Virus record (IMG/VR): IMGVR_UViG_3300029850_000008
Direction: 5' to 3' (one strand)
From: a virus
DNA length: 64,000 nucleotides
Each line of letters opens with the position of its first letter. Positions within the stretch are counted from its first letter, which is position 1. Of the stretch, positions 2,067 to 25,385 are shown one piece after another. The position numbers and the translations under genes were made by a program. A model generated the notes under the pieces. The model made no database searches. It was not told the DNA's origin and was given only the letters and a program-made list of their open reading frames with translations.

Positions 2067-2444
2067 ATGACTTCAAGAAAACCATCAGAGATTATTAAGG
2101 ATTTTTTGGATCTTATGGATAGTTCTCATGACCAGTATTTGAATTCCAAGAAAACAGTGGAAAGTTATGATGAACAGACAATTTCATGGGTTCACAAAAT
2201 CGAAAATGAGGATCTGGCAGAAGAGCGGAGTAAAATTTCTACTGCCTGGCATAAAGAGAGACTTGCTAGAAGAGCAGAGAAAAATAACATGCTTCTGTAT
2301 GAAAAAATCCATGAGTTTTCTATTAATGAGATGAACAAGTCAACTTTGAAGCGTTTAAGAAGTATGCTTGGAAACCAGATTAAGACAGAGGAATATCTGT
2401 CACAGGAAAATAAGGTTTTGAAAAGCAAACGGAGGATAGAGTAA
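2067..2444 (+). CDS. hypothetical protein
   Basis: Track ORF, charged coiled-coil-like, abuts next gene (ATGA overlap at 2444). Confidence 0.55.
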   Translation: MTSRKPSEIIKDFLDLMDSSHDQYLNSKKTVESYDEQTISWVHKIENEDLAEERSKISTAWHKERLARRAEKNNMLLYEKIHEFSINEMNKSTLKRLRSMLGNQIKTEEYLSQENKVLKSKRRIE

Positions 2445-3022
2445 TGGTCATTGGAGTTGATAAGGCTCAACAGGACGGAAAACACATTTTGAAACACAAA
2501 ATGTTGCAAGATATGGGAAATCAGCTGATTGATCTTCCAATTCCTGTTGGGGACTATATCGAAATCACACCGGAAATCAAGGAAGTGATTGACCGGAGAG
2601 GAGATAAGCTAAAGAAAATGGATCTCATTGGTTTAATCAATGTATCTGTAGATACAAAGAGAGACTGTGAAGAGTTATATTCCTGCTTGATGCAGGGGCA
2701 TAAGCGATTTTCGGATAGTTGTTTTTTGGCTCATAATAACGGAATCCGGCTGGTTATTCTTGTTGAAAATCTGGATGGTGTCACGTCAGTAGACAATCTG
2801 GAAAAATGGAAGAATGAAAAACGGTGGAAAAGCTACTTCATTGCCAGAAAAAGAGCGGAAAGAGCTGGAACAAAGGCTCCGAAACCTCCATGCAAACCAT
2901 CTCAGCTGAAACAGATCATGTGGACGATGCATGGAAAATATGGAACAGAATTTGTTTTTTGTAGACCAGAAGAAACGGCACAGAAAATAGTAGAATATCT
3001 TACATCAGATAATAGTAAGTAA
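2444..3022 (+). CDS. putative ERCC4/Mus81-like nuclease (possible junction resolvase)
   Basis: PVGDYIEI ... VDTKRDCEELYSCL resembles the GDY ... ERK..DL..S nuclease signature; by-eye only. Confidence 0.4.
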   Translation: MVIGVDKAQQDGKHILKHKMLQDMGNQLIDLPIPVGDYIEITPEIKEVIDRRGDKLKKMDLIGLINVSVDTKRDCEELYSCLMQGHKRFSDSCFLAHNNGIRLVILVENLDGVTSVDNLEKWKNEKRWKSYFIARKRAERAGTKAPKPPCKPSQLKQIMWTMHGKYGTEFVFCRPEETAQKIVEYLTSDNSK

Positions 3023-3137
3023 ATCTAAAGATCATAAACATCAGATAACCCAGGTGAATCATCCTGGAATACCAATAAAAAGAAGAAAGGAACCGAACCT
3101 CCGGCCGGGGCAATGCTATAGCAGGTTCCTATAAAAA

Positions 3138-5654
3138 ATGACATACAAAGAATTTTTAGAGACAAAGATTGAGCTTGCGACCGAAAGCGGATTTGTTGTA
3201 AGTCAAGAGGAAGTCAACAGTGCATTAAAACCACACCAGAAAGATGCGGTGATGTGGGCGCTAAGAGGTGGCAGAAGGGCGTTATTTGAGAGCTTTGGAC
3301 TTGGAAAGACGGCACAGGAAATTGAATTCTGCCACTTGGCAGCGAAACATAGTGGTGGAAGGGCATTAATTGTGTTGCCGCTTGGAGTAAAACAAGAGTT
3401 TACCAGAGATGCTGTGGAAATTCTTGGCTATGAAAAACCAGAATACTGTCGGACGATGGAAGAGGTGGAAAAAAGTACAAGTCAGATTGTATTAACTAAC
3501 TATGAACGAGTCAGAGATGGAGACATTAGACCGGATTATTTTGTGGCAACTTCTCTTGATGAAGCGAGTGTATTGAGGAGTTTTGGAAGCAAGACCTATC
3601 AAACATTTTTGGACAAGTTCAAGAATGTACCATATAAACTAGTAGCGACTGCTACACCGTCACCAAACAAATACAAGGAACTAATTCACTATGCTGGTTA
3701 CCTGGAAGTGATGGATACTGGGCAGGCGTTGACAAGATTCTTTCAGAGAGATAGCACAAAGGCAAATAATTTGACATTGTACCCAAACATGGAAGATGAG
3801 TTCTGGATGTGGGTAAGTAGTTGGGCATTATTCATCACTAGACCCTCAGATCTGAATCCTAATTATTCAGACGATGGATATGATCTGCCGCCGCTGGAAG
3901 TAAGATGGCATGAACTTCCAGTACACTACGGAGATACCTCTGGTAAGGATGGCCAGATGCAACTATTTCAAGAAGCAGCAGAAGGGTTGAAAGAAGCTGC
4001 ATCAGTAAAGCGTGACAGCATAGATCAGCGAGTGGCCGAAATGAAGAGAATCGTAGAAGAATCACCAAATGATCATTTCTTATTGTGGCATGATCTGGAA
4101 AATGAGCGTCATGCCATTAAAAAAGCATTACCGGATACTGTAGATATTTATGGAGCTATGGACTATGACCTGAGAGAACAACTGGTGATTGACTTTTCAA
4201 ATGGAGCGACCAAATTATTTGCCACAAAGAAATCATTGTCGGGATCCGGATGTAATTTCCAGAGATATTGTCACAGGGAGATTTTTCTGGGAATTGATTA
4301 TGAGTTTAATGATTTCATTCAGGCCGTGCACCGATGTTACAGATTTTTACAGAAAGAACCAGTTGTGATCGATATTATTTACATTGAGAATGAGAGACAG
4401 ATAAAAGAAGCATTGATGGAAAAATGGAAGAATCATAATCATATGGTTTTCAAAATGATAGAAATCGTAAAAAAATATGGACTGACGTCTGCAAATAAAG
4501 AGGAGCGGCTGGAAAGGAAAATGGGAGTGGAAGGAAGTAGAGAAGAAAGAACAGTAAGAGGAAAACACTATGAAGCGGTATATGGTGACTGCGTGGAAGA
4601 AACTAGAACAATGGAAAGCAACAGTGTAGATCTGATCCACACATCAATCCCATTTGGTAATCACTATGAGTATAGCGCCAATTATAACGATTTTGGACAC
4701 AACCAGAATACAGAACGATTCTTTGAACAGATGGATTTTCTTACACCAGAGCTGCTGCGGGTATTGCGTCCTGGAAGAGTGGCAGCAATTCATGTAAAGG
4801 ATCGTGTGCTGTTCGGAAATGCTACAGGTACGGGAATGCCAACTGTCGAACCTTTTCATGCACTGTGTATCAGTCATTATATGAAGCATGGTTTTCAGTA
4901 TTTTGGCATGATTACAGTTGTTACAGATGTGGTTCGAGAAAATAACCAAACATATCGTTTAGGGTGGACGGAACAGTGCAAAGACGGTTCAAAGATGGGG
5001 GTAGGATGCCCAGAATATATTTTACTATTCCGAAAACTCCCGACAGACAGATCTACTGCATATGCTGATGTACCAGTTAAGAAGTCAAAAGAGGACTATA
5101 CCAGGGCGCAGTGGCAGATTGATGCACATGGCTACTGGAGATCATCAGGTGATCGGTTGGTCGGCAAGGAAGAGCTGGAAAACATATCTGTAGATAACTT
5201 GCAGGCGGTATACCGGAAATACAGCCGGGAAAGTGTATACAACTATGAAGACCATGTGAATCTGGCAAAGAAACTGGATGAAAACGGAAAGTTACCGGCT
5301 ACGTTCATGGTGGTTGCACCGGGATCATGGAATCAGTTGGAGGTATGGGATGATATTAACCGGATGCGGACACTGAACACCACACAGAGCCGTAGACGTG
5401 CTCAAATGCACGTGTGCCCGTTACAGCTGGATATCGTTGAGAGAATCATCAATAGATACAGTAATGAGGGTGATACTGTCTATGATCCGTTTGGCGGTCT
5501 TATGACAGTACCTATGATAGCTGTGAAAATGCATAGATTTGGAAAAGGATGCGAGCTGAATGCTGACTATTTCCGGGATGGAATTGGTTATTTGCAAGCA
5601 GTTGAAAACGAGATCGACTCTCCTACGTTGTTCGATTTTATGCAAGAAGTATAG
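3138..5654 (+). CDS. SNF2-family helicase fused to beta-class amino DNA methyltransferase
   Basis: N-half GLGKT, DEAS, TATPSPN, QAVHRCYR helicase motifs; C-half TSIPF (motif IV-like) followed by DPFGG (motif I). Confidence 0.8.
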   Translation: MTYKEFLETKIELATESGFVVSQEEVNSALKPHQKDAVMWALRGGRRALFESFGLGKTAQEIEFCHLAAKHSGGRALIVLPLGVKQEFTRDAVEILGYEKPEYCRTMEEVEKSTSQIVLTNYERVRDGDIRPDYFVATSLDEASVLRSFGSKTYQTFLDKFKNVPYKLVATATPSPNKYKELIHYAGYLEVMDTGQALTRFFQRDSTKANNLTLYPNMEDEFWMWVSSWALFITRPSDLNPNYSDDGYDLPPLEVRWHELPVHYGDTSGKDGQMQLFQEAAEGLKEAASVKRDSIDQRVAEMKRIVEESPNDHFLLWHDLENERHAIKKALPDTVDIYGAMDYDLREQLVIDFSNGATKLFATKKSLSGSGCNFQRYCHREIFLGIDYEFNDFIQAVHRCYRFLQKEPVVIDIIYIENERQIKEALMEKWKNHNHMVFKMIEIVKKYGLTSANKEERLERKMGVEGSREERTVRGKHYEAVYGDCVEETRTMESNSVDLIHTSIPFGNHYEYSANYNDFGHNQNTERFFEQMDFLTPELLRVLRPGRVAAIHVKDRVLFGNATGTGMPTVEPFHALCISHYMKHGFQYFGMITVVTDVVRENNQTYRLGWTEQCKDGSKMGVGCPEYILLFRKLPTDRSTAYADVPVKKSKEDYTRAQWQIDAHGYWRSSGDRLVGKEELENISVDNLQAVYRKYSRESVYNYEDHVNLAKKLDENGKLPATFMVVAPGSWNQLEVWDDINRMRTLNTTQSRRRAQMHVCPLQLDIVERIINRYSNEGDTVYDPFGGLMTVPMIAVKMHRFGKGCELNADYFRDGIGYLQAVENEIDSPTLFDFMQEV

Positions 5655-9998: not shown

Positions 9999-11753
9999 AT
10001 GAGTAATATATACCAGTTAAGAGAACTACTTAGAACACAGACAATTTATGATTTGCCGTTACGAGTTGCATACTATGCAAGAGTCAGCACAGATCATGAT
10101 GAACAGAAAACATCAATCAAGAACCAGGATGATTATTTTAAGGAATTGATAAAATCAAAGCCGAACTGGAAATTTATGGGAGGCTATATTGATGAGGGGA
10201 TTTCTGGAATTGCCGTAAAAAATCGTGAAGATTTTTTGAGGATGATTGATGATGCTAAGAATGGAAAGATTGATTTGATACTGACAAAAGAAATTTCCAG
10301 ATTCGCTAGGAATACACTAGATAGCATCAAATACACCCGTGAACTTTTGGCATGTGGTGTATGTGTATGGTTTATGAATGATGGAATCAATACGATTGAT
10401 GAAGACAGTGAGTTAAGATTGACTATTATGGCAGCTATGGCACAGGACGAAATCAGAAAGATGTCTTCCAGGATTAAATTCGGTCAGGCTCAGTCAATAA
10501 AAAATGGCGTAGTAATGGGAAATTCAAGATTGTATGGTTATGACAAAAAAGATGGAAAACTGACAATCAATGAAGCTGAAGCCGAAATGGTTCGATTCAT
10601 TTTTGAAAGTTATGCATCTGGCAAATGGACAACACCACAGATTGAACGATACCTATATGAAAAAGGGTACAGAAACTATAATGGAGGTAAAATCAACCGT
10701 GGAGTTATCAAAAATATCATAAAGAATCCAAAGTACAAAGGTTATTATGCTGGTGGAAAAGTAAAAGTTATTGATATGTTTACAAAAAAACAGATGTTTC
10801 TTCCAAAAGACCAATGGGTTTATTACAAGGATGATGGATCAACGGTTCCGCAAATCATAGATGAAAAGACTTGGGAAGATGCAAATTATTATATGAAGAG
10901 CCGTGGTGACAATATAAGAAGTCACAGAACGGTGTTTAAGTATGGTAATGTGTTTACTGGAAAGGTAATTTGTGGGATAGATGGTGCTTCGTATTGGCTA
11001 CGTGAACACAAGATACGTGGAAAAGAAAGTGATCCAAGATGGGTCTGTAGTCATAAAATCAAAAATGGAGCAAATTCTTGTCTATCGGTTCCTGTCAGAG
11101 AAAGCGACTTGAAACAAATGGTTGCATCAGCAATCAGTCAAGCAGCTGGAAACTCTAAAGATGTTATTGATTCATATATGAATTATTACTTAAAAGCCAT
11201 TGATGATTCAAAAGAAAAAGAGGGAGAAATAGCAGTTTTAAGAAAAAATATTGAATCCACAAAATTGAAGATGGAGAAAATCCTGGATTACAATTTGAAC
11301 GGATCAATATCTGATGATGAATTCTTAAAAAGAAACGCTGCGTATAAAAAAGAGATTGAAAACGCAGAAGAGAAAATTCTAAAATTGTCTAAAAAACCGG
11401 AAGAGCCGGATTCTATTGCAAGGAAAATCGAACAGATAAGGGAATACTTGGCGAACACAGAAATTGTTTCTGCTGATGACATAACTAAACAAATTGTCGA
11501 AAAATTAATTGAAAAGATAATTATATTACCAGAAGAGGAAAATGGTATAAAAGTCATCAAGTCAGAAATATACCTTATAAATAAGGAACTGTATAAGTTT
11601 TGTAAGGATATGGGGACAAAAAATAGTTGTTCAGATAACGTAACTTTGATCATGTTCCCTAAACAACGCATGGAAATTACTAATGAAAATGCGCATTGTG
11701 TGAACCAGTATAAAAGATTTTCAATAGAATTTTCTCTCTTTGTAAGATTTTAA
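9999..11753 (+). CDS. large serine recombinase (integrase)
   Basis: Resolvase catalytic N-terminus YARVSTDHDEQKTSIKNQ, 584 aa with Cys cluster and long coiled-coil tail. Confidence 0.9.
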   Translation: MSNIYQLRELLRTQTIYDLPLRVAYYARVSTDHDEQKTSIKNQDDYFKELIKSKPNWKFMGGYIDEGISGIAVKNREDFLRMIDDAKNGKIDLILTKEISRFARNTLDSIKYTRELLACGVCVWFMNDGINTIDEDSELRLTIMAAMAQDEIRKMSSRIKFGQAQSIKNGVVMGNSRLYGYDKKDGKLTINEAEAEMVRFIFESYASGKWTTPQIERYLYEKGYRNYNGGKINRGVIKNIIKNPKYKGYYAGGKVKVIDMFTKKQMFLPKDQWVYYKDDGSTVPQIIDEKTWEDANYYMKSRGDNIRSHRTVFKYGNVFTGKVICGIDGASYWLREHKIRGKESDPRWVCSHKIKNGANSCLSVPVRESDLKQMVASAISQAAGNSKDVIDSYMNYYLKAIDDSKEKEGEIAVLRKNIESTKLKMEKILDYNLNGSISDDEFLKRNAAYKKEIENAEEKILKLSKKPEEPDSIARKIEQIREYLANTEIVSADDITKQIVEKLIEKIIILPEEENGIKVIKSEIYLINKELYKFCKDMGTKNSCSDNVTLIMFPKQRMEITNENAHCVNQYKRFSIEFSLFVRF

Positions 11754-12305: not shown

Positions 12306-12332
12306 ATAGAGGGGCGTTATTATCCCCTCTAT
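12306..12332 (-). terminator. intrinsic terminator of the minus-strand micro-gene operon
   Basis: 9-bp stem ATAGAGGGG/CCCCTCTAT directly after stop at 12332-12334, followed on the minus strand by UUUGUGUUU. Confidence 0.65.
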
Positions 12333-12532
12333 TATTCATAAAAGCCCCATGCTTTGTATTGCTTTTTCAATACTTCCAAAGCAGAATTTTTACTGAGAAA
12401 CTCAGCTCTAGCCGTTTCTCTTGTATATTTCTTGGCACTATACCAGGCGAAACCATTGATCACATACCAGGAATCCCCGTGATCATCGGTTTCCAGCTCA
12501 ATACTATAAACCATCTTTTTCTTACGTGGCAT
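12332..12532 (-). CDS. hypothetical micro-protein (66 aa)
   Basis: Track ORF; SD AAGGAGG 8 nt before ATG. Confidence 0.55.
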   Translation of the reverse strand: MPRKKKMVYSIELETDDHGDSWYVINGFAWYSAKKYTRETARAEFLSKNSALEVLKKQYKAWGFYE

Positions 12533-12568
12533 GGCTTGACCTCCTTATTCTTTTTTTCTGGATATGCT

Positions 12569-12758
12569 AAAAAATCCCGGATATACCGCCGGGGCGGTGC
12601 CCTGTTATGGCCTTGGACATCGGCTACAGTGCTGGCTTTTTCGGCTCCCAGTCAACGCCGCTTTTGCCTCCCTTCGCGATCCGGGCATTAAAAGCGGATA
12701 AAGCCCGGAGAGAAACCCAGCGGCGGACTGAACCGCCCACGGCTTAACCGTCACAGGG
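12569..12758 (-). ncRNA. candidate structured RNA (~190 nt, GC-rich, pseudoknotted), class unknown
   Basis: Closing helix 12600-05/12753-58, three hairpins, interleaved helices 12681-86/12703-08 and 12658-65/12690-97, U6 at the 3' end. Confidence 0.4.
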
Positions 12759-12764
12759 TAGGTT

Positions 12765-12827
12765 TTATAAGAGGCTCAAGCTATAACCTCCGATAAATGA
12801 CAAAACGGCAATAAGAACGTAATACAT
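12765..12827 (-). CDS. 20-codon hydrophobic mini-ORF (MYYVLIAVLSFIGGYSLSLL)
   Basis: Strong SD AAAGGAGGG 6 nt before ATG at 12827-12825; TAA at 12767-12765. Confidence 0.3.
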   Translation of the reverse strand: MYYVLIAVLSFIGGYSLSLL

Positions 12828-12842
12828 ATGTTTCCCTCCTTT

Positions 12843-13103: not shown

Positions 13104-13138
13104 GTGTTTTCCTCCATTTTTTTTGATTTTTATAAAAA

Positions 13139-13178
13139 CGCCGCCCGTGGGAATCGAACCAACGAAACTCCAAACGGC
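13139..13178 (-). other. tRNA-like acceptor/T-arm minihelix followed by U run
   Basis: Minus strand GCCGUUU-GGAGUUUC-GUUGG-UUCGAUU-CCCAC-GGGCGGC-G then UUUUU; starts right after a stop codon. Confidence 0.3.
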
Positions 13179-13662: not shown

Positions 13663-13683
13663 ATATTTTACGTCCTTTCTTTT

Positions 13684-13747
13684 TGCCCTGTCTCATCGGT
13701 GCAGGTGGGGCAGTTCCTACAGACCGCCGGGCGGCGGTTTCGACTAA
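13684..13747 (-). ncRNA. hammerhead ribozyme, type II (copy B, U4C core variant)
   Basis: UUAGUC GAAAC CGCC-GCCC-GGCG GUC^UGUAGG-loop-CCUGCA CCGAUGA GAC; predicted cut after C at 13722. Confidence 0.7.
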
Positions 13748-14012: not shown

Positions 14013-14106
14013 TGTACACAATTATATAATGTTACGTACACAATATCAATGTGCATTTTACACAAAGTTACGCACACATTTTTATATATTTTTGATGTGT
14101 ACACAA
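14013..14106. promoter_or_regulatory. divergent promoter region with five GTACACAA-type repeats
   Basis: TGTACACAA 14013, CGTACACAA 14035, TTTACACAA 14057, CGCACACAT 14071, TGTACACAA 14098; TATAAT at 14120-14125. Confidence 0.45.
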
Positions 14107-14155
14107 CATTGAAACTATGTTATAATTTCCGCATAATGGAAGGGGGGGCCTTTTT

Positions 14156-14338
14156 ATGGCGATGTCAGAAGAACGAAAAAATTATCTGTATTCTTACAAA
14201 AAACAAAGGCTAAAGCGTGTCCCGCTGGATATGCAAATAGCGGACTATGAAGCGCTAAAAGCAGCAGCAGATCAAGCCGGGCAAACTGTCAACGGCTTTA
14301 TTAAACAAGCCATAGCCGAAAAACTGGAGCGGATGTAG
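14156..14338 (+). CDS. ribbon-helix-helix (Arc/CopG-like) protein
   Basis: 60 aa; KRVPLDMQIADYEALKAAADQAGQTVNGFIKQAI fits a beta-alpha-alpha RHH pattern. Confidence 0.65.
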   Translation: MAMSEERKNYLYSYKKQRLKRVPLDMQIADYEALKAAADQAGQTVNGFIKQAIAEKLERM

Positions 14339-24978: not shown

Positions 24979-25050
24979 TGGGCTATCGCCAAGCGGTAAG
25001 GCACATGACTTTGACTCATGTATGCGTTGGTTCGAATCCAACTAGCCCAG
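24979..25050 (+). tRNA. tRNA-Gln (anticodon UUG)
   Basis: Acceptor TGGGCTA/TAGCCCA, anticodon arm CATGA-CTTTGAC-TCATG, T arm GTTGG-TTCGAAT-CCAAC. Confidence 0.85.
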
Positions 25051-25312
25051 CTTGGTAAGATTTATTTACCTTACCAAAATAGCATATCATTTATGCTATT
25101 CCTCCTCATTCATATTACCACCTAGCGGAAAGCTGATAAAAGAACCGTCACAAGGTTCGGGTGGTTTTCTGGTTTGGAAGCCAGGACATGTGCAAAGTTC
25201 CGAACTGTTTACCACATCATAGGGATGTTTGCATGGCCTTTGTTATGGCTGGTGGATAAGAACCATAACAGTGAAGGGGATTTCTTGCAGAATTCAAATC
25301 CCCTTTATCTCA

Positions 25313-25385
25313 GGAGCTTTATTTCAGTTGGTAGAAAGACCGCCTCATAAGCGGTAAGTCATCGGTTCGAGTCCGGTAGGCTCCA
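25313..25385 (+). tRNA. tRNA-Met-type (anticodon CAU; Met vs Ile2 vs initiator not resolved)
   Basis: Acceptor GGAGCTT/AGGCTCC (one G-U), anticodon arm ACCGC-CTCATAA-GCGGT, T loop TTCGAGT. Confidence 0.85.

Follow-up and report, generated by a model that had tools for sequence, protein, structure and literature searches.

New classes of ribozymes and riboswitches have mostly been found as GC-rich, conserved and unclassified intergenic RNAs near known ribozymes in phage-like regions, and intercistronic hairpins processed by RNase III are known from phage mRNAs, namely the T7 early region and lambda sib. Prophage operons in which multiple type II hammerhead ribozymes flank single small genes near the integrase gene have also been described (Perreault et al. 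2011, PMC3088659). The locus reported here, which lies in a 64,000-nucleotide (nt) stretch of viral DNA (IMG/VR record IMGVR_UViG_3300029850_000008, hereafter the window), resembles these operons in that a series of short genes beside an integrase gene contains two hammerheads and GC-rich structured intergenic RNAs. The subject of this report is a further intergenic segment of the same operon, a 183-nt GC-rich non-coding core at 12576-12758 on the minus strand, referred to below as the element. It differs from the hammerheads in that it matches no ribozyme model and is about three times longer, and cleavage by it is putative. Taken together, the data make it quite probable that the minus strand of the element gives a functional structured RNA. 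The element fits the profile by which new ribozyme and riboswitch classes have been discovered.

Conservation and coding status of the element

The element occupies the 232-nt gap between a hydrophobic open reading frame (ORF) of 20 codons and a gene for a protein of 66 amino acids (aa), both of which belong to a minus-strand operon. It begins 6 nt after the small ORF's stop codon and extends as far as the base that precedes A-U6. The original prediction, made from the sequence alone, had described a 190-nt stretch at this site as visibly GC-rich inside an AT-rich phage, and the composition confirms this: the stretch has a G+C content of 59.5% (59% in the core) versus 37.9% for the window, of which it is the highest-GC island.

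The whole module is present at 38 loci, which yield 18 distinct module sequences and 12 distinct core sequences; the set consists of one IMG/VR contig of the same phage and of contigs found through exact variants of the 66-aa protein. Across the 18 module sequences, 12 of the 183 core positions (12758-12576) are variable (6.6%), compared with 26 of the 66 third codon positions of the 66-aa gene (39%; Fisher's test, p = 3.4e-9). The first and second positions of that gene vary at 7 of 132 sites (5.3%), and the third codon positions of the small ORF at 11 of 20 (55%). The same contrast is seen in single sequences. L067, the haplotype that has diverged furthest, is unlike the window at 2 of 183 core positions, as against 26 of 198 in the gene, 11 of 60 in the small ORF and 7 of 46 in the spacer, and, more generally, the flanks have diverged by 13-18% in haplotypes whose core differs by 1-3%.

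Two other intergenic segments of the operon served as controls. The hammerhead at 13745-13682 is variable at 2 of 64 positions versus 15-17% of the flanking third codon positions, while the hairpin-containing intergenic region at 13178-13104 is variable at 17 of 75 positions (23%) versus 35% of the third positions in the adjacent 86-aa gene. Hence, the core is under strong purifying selection and is conserved like a ribozyme, unlike a spacer or a simple terminator; the resulting island of conservation, situated between two diverging genes, stands out about as sharply as the hammerhead of this operon does. Loops, bulges and predicted unpaired positions of the core are nearly invariant as well.

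The constraint is not that of a protein-coding sequence, since the candidate ORFs within the element are stopped, frameshifted or mostly non-synonymously changed in the relatives. A minus-strand ORF of 49 aa is interrupted in many haplotypes by a TAG codon that arises from A to T at 12745, a plus-strand ORF of 45 aa is frameshifted by insertions and deletions in a homopolymeric A-tract, and the changes in a plus-strand ORF of 46 aa are mostly non-synonymous. A mobile repeat of the type of miniature inverted-repeat transposable elements or repetitive extragenic palindromic sequences was likewise rejected, as the element exists in a single copy and in no other context: nhmmer and R1, a covariance model built from the element, revealed no second copy in the window, in 37 related loci or in 81 further viral loci. 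Since neither an empty site nor a copy in another context was seen, the recent spread of a mobile insert is unlikely.

The element had been thought to belong to no recognizable RNA class, and the search against Rfam proposed as a check agreed with this. With cmscan and Rfam 15, no match was obtained at gathering thresholds on either strand of 12520-12840, nor did any Rfam model match the element at E <= 10 when 4 kb or 321 nt were searched. The models without a match at E = 10 include those of the hammerhead, twister, twister-sister, pistol, hatchet, hepatitis delta virus-like and hairpin ribozymes, and the catalytic core and helices of the self-cleaving classes known to Rfam (hammerhead I, II and III, glmS and hovlinc among them) are not matched by the element. 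A degenerate hammerhead was rejected because a weak Rfam match is lacking and a CCGAUGU-like stretch lies among the variable sites. Assignment to the riboswitches finds no basis either: no Rfam class was matched, the element was found in just one phage lineage, and distant homologues of the downstream gene lack it. ARAGORN reported nothing at the element and only two tRNAs in the window, at about 25 kb, so that a tRNA or a transfer-messenger RNA was also rejected. These two phage tRNAs, tRNA-Gln (UUG) at 24979-25051 and tRNA-Met (CAU) at 25313-25385, are encoded on the plus strand.

Candidate folds of the minus-strand RNA

The seven pairs of complementary segments from which the original prediction assembled its fold are all exact reverse complements. 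Evidence from sequence variation, however, singles out one of them. The hairpin P4 (12681-12708, minus strand), in which 12708-12703 pairs with 12686-12681 across a 16-nt loop, has in haplotype L066 two changes, at 12706/12683, that compensate each other and turn G-C into U-A, and in L013 a G-C to G.U change at 12684. It is the sole helix with covariation among the candidates for the core, and it is common to both folds considered below.

The H-type pseudoknot proposed around P4 (12658-12697) has no specific support of this kind. Its loop segment 12697-12690 (CCGCUUUU) does form an exact 8-bp complement with 12665-12658 (AAAAGCGG), but no covariation accompanies this pairing. The only variation is a single C to U at 12660, which is compatible with a G.U pair, and the pairing competes with a 7-bp helix formed by 12725-12719 and 12662-12656. 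In addition, a complementary 8-mer occurs in 28% of dinucleotide shuffles, so the pseudoknot pairing alone is not unusual. The closing helix (12600-12758; 12758-12753 with 12605-12600) is an exact 6-bp complement in the window but acquires a C.A mismatch in three haplotypes through a U to C change at 12755. The three small hairpins and the 7-bp alternative helix of the original prediction show no covariation and are not specifically supported.

Each helix by itself is near what chance would give, but overall self-complementarity is enriched, with 6 complementary 7-mer pairs versus 1.6 expected (a value reached by 20 of 1000 shuffles) and 15 complementary 6-mer pairs versus 6.3 expected (17 of 1000 shuffles). 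The minimum-energy fold of the minus strand has -80.1 kcal/mol (z = -2.05; 5 of 200 shuffles as good) and that of the plus strand -73.2 kcal/mol (z = -1.58), the minus strand being better by 7 kcal/mol. Both the minimum-energy prediction and RNAalifold give a branched rod (12576-12757, minus strand). Its predicted helices are 12757-47/12584-76, 12743-32/12598-88, 12731-19/12662-48, 12716-10/12672-66 and an extended P4, 12709-12699/12690-12680, with a side branch at about 12636-12599.

All 59 pairs of the RNAalifold rod are retained in 12 of 12 distinct core sequences. Four single changes keep rod pairs, three of them being C to U changes that give G.U and one a U to C change that gives C-G; the substitution at 12755 thus turns a U.G pair of the rod into C-G. 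The C to U changes at 12660 and 12594 yield G.U pairs on the minus strand and would be A.C mismatches on the plus strand. In the rod fold of minimum energy calculated from the single sequence, a pair is broken by 1 of the 12 substitutions. When the 12 observed substitutions were moved at random among positions with the same base (5000 trials), one broken pair or fewer was obtained in 0.56% of the trials for the rod (p ~0.006) versus 16% for the pseudoknotted fold. The rod is also favoured by the calculated energies, -80 kcal/mol versus -71 kcal/mol for the nested part of the pseudoknotted fold, a difference of about 9 kcal/mol in which the pseudoknot itself is not counted. The two folds are nevertheless near each other in energy, and they use the same segments in mutually exclusive ways. 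On this evidence, the minus strand probably forms an RNA structure, hairpin P4 is supported, and the rod fits better than the pseudoknotted fold does. The original prediction is thus borne out in part: there is a constrained, non-coding, unclassified minus-strand RNA, whereas the particular pseudoknotted fold and closing helix that were proposed are not specifically supported.

The 3' end of the element resembles an intrinsic terminator. A consensus scan identified a hairpin, CCCGG-CGGUAUAU-CCGGG (-8.8 kcal/mol), followed by A-U6 at 12569-12593 on the minus strand; the hairpin covers 12593-12576, the A lies at 12575 and the U6 tract at 12574-12569, so that a GC-rich hairpin directly precedes a U-tract, as in terminators and attenuators. 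The expectation that one strand of the alternative helix would be followed directly by A-U6 on the minus strand is borne out by AUCCGGG at 12582-12576. This heptamer has three possible partners: the local CCCGG of the terminator-like hairpin, the 3' strand of P4 (7 bp) and the 5' end of the element. The 7-bp alternative helix with P4 (12685-79/12582-76) is kept in most haplotypes. A direct repeat, ATATCC, occurs on either side of the U-tract (12560-12565 and 12579-12584, minus strand, 19 nt apart), and in the variants L066-L069 this repeat is longer, UAUAUCCGG being present twice.

A long-range helix predicted at 12531-12784 on the minus strand would enclose the whole element. In this helix the end of the small ORF (12784-12767) pairs with 12548-12531, where the 66-aa gene has its Shine-Dalgarno sequence and AUG, through 14 Watson-Crick pairs and 1 G.U among 18 positions. 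It appears in the minimum-energy fold and includes one C-G to U.G to U-A series (L086). The Shine-Dalgarno sequence of the 66-aa gene is predicted to be paired (unpaired probability 0.07).

Operon context and distribution

Read on the minus strand, the operon starts with a 75-aa gene, a hammerhead, an 86-aa gene, a second hammerhead and a 49-aa gene, continues with a hairpin that has a T-loop-like loop and U5, another 86-aa gene and the 20-codon ORF, and ends with the element, the 66-aa gene and a terminator-like hairpin (12331-12309). It is headed by a promoter-like site, TTGATA-17-TATAAT, at 14049-14021 (minus strand). Since a promoter scan gave no promoter-like site between the element and the 66-aa gene, the latter must be transcribed through the element.

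The small ORF, MYYVLIAVLSFIGGYSLSLL (12765-12827, minus strand), is unannotated and was left uncalled by gene callers in every related contig. It is preceded by the Shine-Dalgarno sequence GGAGGG and encodes a conserved peptide, the changes being mostly synonymous or conservative (first and second codon positions 20% variable, against the 55% of third positions). Judged from its sequence, it is probably a real single-helix membrane peptide. With regard to type I toxin-antitoxin systems, the locus offers a conserved hydrophobic ORF of 20 aa with a strong Shine-Dalgarno sequence, located inside the operon, and no plus-strand promoter-like site directed into the element.

The 66-aa gene (12332-12532, minus strand; Shine-Dalgarno AAGGAGG at 12546-12540) has distant homologues in other phages, which either exist as stand-alone genes or make up the C-terminal portion of a larger protein (L022, L023) and share the consensus ..TDE.G..W..ING.T.Y......E.A...YLS........AWGFYD. 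The AlphaFold model of the protein consists of three strands and two helices (predicted local distance difference test score, pLDDT, of 80) and has no significant match in the PDB. The protein has no significant Pfam or PHROG match either, and these two databases gave no function for any operon gene. Downstream, the cassette is closed by the terminator-like hairpin AGAGGGG-AUAAUAAC-GCCCCUCU with the U-rich tail AUUUGUGUUU (12309-12331, minus strand), which was read from the sequence and is missing from the list of the consensus terminator scan.

The cassette formed by the small ORF, the element, the 66-aa gene and the terminal hairpin stays joined among the relatives, while the gene upstream of it is swapped. 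A serine-integrase gene (9999-11753) converges on the operon. In integrated copies, homology to the window is lost at about 11645, a point within the 3' end of the integrase gene; past the junction (at about 2386 in L086 and L082), the host flank of L086 carries a RecG helicase gene. The position of this junction places the cassette at the prophage end and rules out the element as the phage attachment site attP; the attachment core thus lies inside the 3' end of the phage's own integrase gene, and integration alters the C-terminus of the integrase. In several relatives, an IS605-family TnpB gene (OrfB_IS605/Cas12f1-like) is inserted between the 66-aa and integrase genes (L011, 1307-2557; L071 and L073-L078, about 2150-3200); the window is free of this insertion.

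The hammerheads reported near the element were recovered, both on the minus strand and the nearest about 580 nt away. The type II hammerhead at 13339-13403 matches Rfam RF02276 with 40.2 bits (gathering score 37), and the type II hammerhead-like sequence at 13682-13745, in which CCGAUGA replaces the CUGAUGA core, reaches 31 bits, which is below the gathering score (E = 0.0016). They flank the 86-aa gene at 13662-13402, and a homologous pair is found in related phages (L009, 2351-2420 and 2586-2651; 62 and 26 bits). The intergenic hairpin at 13104-13178 (minus strand) contains the tRNA T-loop-like sequence GGUUCGAUUCC followed by a U-rich tail. Its counterpart in L003 and L005-L009 (about 3250-3300) is flanked by acceptor-like complementarity, CAACC...GGUUG, in L009-type phages, and from its sequence the hairpin looks like a terminator or a tRNA-minihelix-like processing signal. 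At the head of the operon, promoter-like sites at 14098-14338 (plus strand) and 14021-14049 (minus strand) diverge between the operon and a 60-aa ribbon-helix-helix (Arc/CopG-like) gene (14156-14338, plus strand); this is probably the regulatory switch region of the phage.

The element was seen only in one narrow lineage of phages, which come from human-gut metagenomes. A blastn search in distant mode of 50,697 phage records returned just one spurious 40-nt match, and neither a megablast search with 8 kb nor a plasmid search gave any match. Pattern scans of IMG/VR with the pseudoknot pattern, the back-translated peptide end, the 3' motif and two 16-mers retrieved one contig of the same phage besides chance matches, as vetted with nhmmer and the R1 model. 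Only chance matches were obtained in an 18-mer scan of 185,579 species genomes (GTDB) and in a scan of JGI metagenomes for the pseudoknot pattern. The region downstream is different where homologues of the upstream 86-aa gene occur (L003-L009), and the element is absent from phages with a 57-72% identical integrase.

A second phage lineage (L009-type) shares with the element a 20-nt motif, GCGGTATATCNGGNATTTTT, which is located at the 3' end of the latter. There, GCGGTATATCNGGNATTTTT lies in a region of non-coding sequence that is GC-rich and conserved and contains about six GATCAG(C/G) and five CCCGGA repeats (L009, 3640-3900; the same in L003, L005-L008, L091-L093, L095 and L097-L099), preceded by a promoter-like TTGACA...TATTAT. 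This region may represent an array of iterons or binding sites, or a further non-coding RNA.

Possible functions and comparison with known systems

The explanation that we tentatively prefer, while giving it somewhat less than an even chance, is that the element is a cis-acting, fold-switching gate for the 66-aa gene. It would form a constrained structured RNA domain within the minus-strand polycistronic mRNA and adopt either of two mutually exclusive sets of helices. In the first, it would be a long branched rod, its basal helix running up to the U-tract; in the second, local hairpins and the pairing of the loop with a downstream segment would release AUCCGGG for the small terminator hairpin. 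Which fold is taken would determine whether transcription continues past the U-tract and whether the Shine-Dalgarno sequence is accessible, and this might depend on ribosomes that complete translation of the small ORF 6 nt upstream, or on another factor. The idea of a terminator/antiterminator or conformational switch, which was already part of the original prediction, is plausible because several mutually exclusive perfect helices coexist with a terminator-like hairpin and its U-tract; from this arrangement we infer the switching itself, its trigger and its regulatory output. If two folds had to be satisfied at once, this would also explain why almost every position is nearly invariant.

Several observations, however, weigh against such a gate. 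The U-tract contains 6, 5 or 4 U in the relatives, and in L066 the very change that compensates P4 breaks the 7-bp alternative (antiterminator) helix by an A.G mismatch. The long-range helix suffers four pair-breaking changes, and a ribosome modelled at the stop of the small ORF raises the accessibility of the Shine-Dalgarno sequence from 0.07 to 0.18 only, in a calculation that assumed the stop codon to lie 3 nt upstream of its true position (the small ORF in fact spans 12827-12765). The distant homologues of the 66-aa protein (30-45% identity) have the previous gene 15-36 nt away and no comparable leader, which makes the element a lineage-specific acquisition and not an ancestral regulator of the gene family. 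As to the fold, the covariation rests on single haplotypes, and the analysis tool's own shuffle controls are weak, in that 15-43 of 500 shuffles do as well as the observed sequences. Since all element sequences come from one narrow lineage, no fold is fixed with confidence.

Among the alternatives, a stand-alone trans-acting non-coding RNA, for instance a decoy or regulator of lysogeny, would be processed from the operon transcript and have its 3' end at its own hairpin and U-tract. Strong constraint that extends to predicted unpaired positions would suit such an RNA, as would the 3' hairpin followed by A-U6, which many small RNAs possess, the position in a moron-like cassette at the prophage end (junction at about 11645) and the absence of the element from other phages that carry the 66-aa family. 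Nevertheless, we regard it as rather unlikely: the region directly upstream contains no promoter-like site, the element starts only 6 nt past a translated ORF, the length of the U-tract varies, and neither a target nor a partner can be named.

The neighbourhood of the element argues for a new self-cleaving ribozyme or RNA-processing element that cuts the mRNA between the small ORF and the 66-aa gene. Two upstream intergenic slots of the same operon are filled by hammerheads, which related phages carry too, and prophage hammerheads around single genes near integrase genes are a published pattern (PMC3088659). The element is, moreover, GC-rich like the hammerheads, conserved to the same relative degree and without a known family. 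On the other hand, its 183 nt make it two to three times as large as the small self-cleaving classes, no motif resembling a catalytic core was recognised, no ribozyme model matched at E = 10, and the element is confined to one lineage and one locus, which leaves a ribozyme unlikely. We hold an equally low opinion of the wider proposition that the element is the first member of a new class of large functional RNAs of temperate gut phages. Such a class could take the form of a self-cleaving or processing ribozyme in a hammerhead-type slot, or of a switch that senses a ligand or factor, and the near-total constraint would then arise because the RNA must take a precise tertiary structure or two alternative structures.

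A long double-stranded processing or stability hairpin (an RNase III site or a 3'-end protector), which would set the neighbouring cistrons apart and stabilise them, is in keeping with the rod of 59 pairs, long, imperfect and branched, that has the best support among the folds, and with the other processing or termination elements seen between genes of the operon. A plain hairpin of this kind, however, would tolerate many compensatory and loop changes, while the element hardly varies in its loops and bulges and is as constrained as a ribozyme, the ordinary hairpin at 13104-13178 having 23% of its sites variable. This alternative is therefore distinctly improbable.

A DNA-level element, made up of a cluster of sites for protein binding, of a weak promoter that serves the 66-aa gene, or of both, seems more improbable still. 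CCCGGA occurs 3 times within 134 bp versus 15 times in the whole 64 kb, the ATATCC repeats (12584-79 and 12565-60) stand 19 nt apart, GCGGTATATCNGGNATTTTT lies among non-coding CCCGGA and GATCAG repeats in the second lineage, and ATAACA-17 nt-TATATC could, by eye, be a weak promoter. Yet contiguous near-invariance over 183 bp far exceeds that of usual operators, the compensatory change and the strand-specific G.U pattern indicate a folded single strand, the promoter scan gave no site here, and the prophage-host junction (about 11645) is about 900 bp distant. Finally, a GC-rich relic, or a recent insertion conserved only by recent common ancestry, would account for the single lineage and the modest whole-region fold z-scores (-1.6 to -2.05), but lack of function is very hard to credit given flanks that have diverged far more than the core, the absence of an empty site or second copy in any context, and substitutions that avoid breaking pairs.

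If the preferred reading, that of a fold-switching gate, is true, the element shows how a prophage-end cassette of a tiny membrane peptide and a 66-aa protein is controlled; if the RNA is catalytic or acts in trans, it represents a new RNA class from the human gut virome. Its value is limited by its occurrence in one phage lineage, within which comparative data cannot fix the fold and covariation is not decisive, while the signal of selection and the ribozymes nearby recommend it for experiments.

Among known systems, attenuators and the expression platforms of riboswitches share with this locus an upstream short ORF, mutually exclusive perfect helices, a hairpin with a U-tract and a Shine-Dalgarno sequence. 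The small ORF, however, is a conserved peptide gene here and not a throw-away leader, the U-tract changes in length among relatives, and one haplotype disrupts the proposed antiterminator. In addition, no known aptamer matches the element, nor is the element found upstream of the distant homologues of the 66-aa gene. In systems with long-range coupling of cistrons, such as MS2 coat-replicase and mok-hok, the end of the upstream ORF is likewise complementary to the downstream Shine-Dalgarno sequence and start, and here, too, two pairing arms enclose a structured domain; the differences lie in the one compensatory series set against four disruptive changes and in the small modelled gain of accessibility. 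With the RNase III hairpins of T7 and lambda sib the element has in common a long imperfect double-stranded rod between phage cistrons, but its constraint covers loops and bulges and is far stronger than that of another hairpin of the operon. In view of these comparisons, we would class the element as a structured RNA motif that has not been described before and is restricted to one lineage, but whose general kind is known, namely that of cis-located structured RNAs of phage mRNAs.

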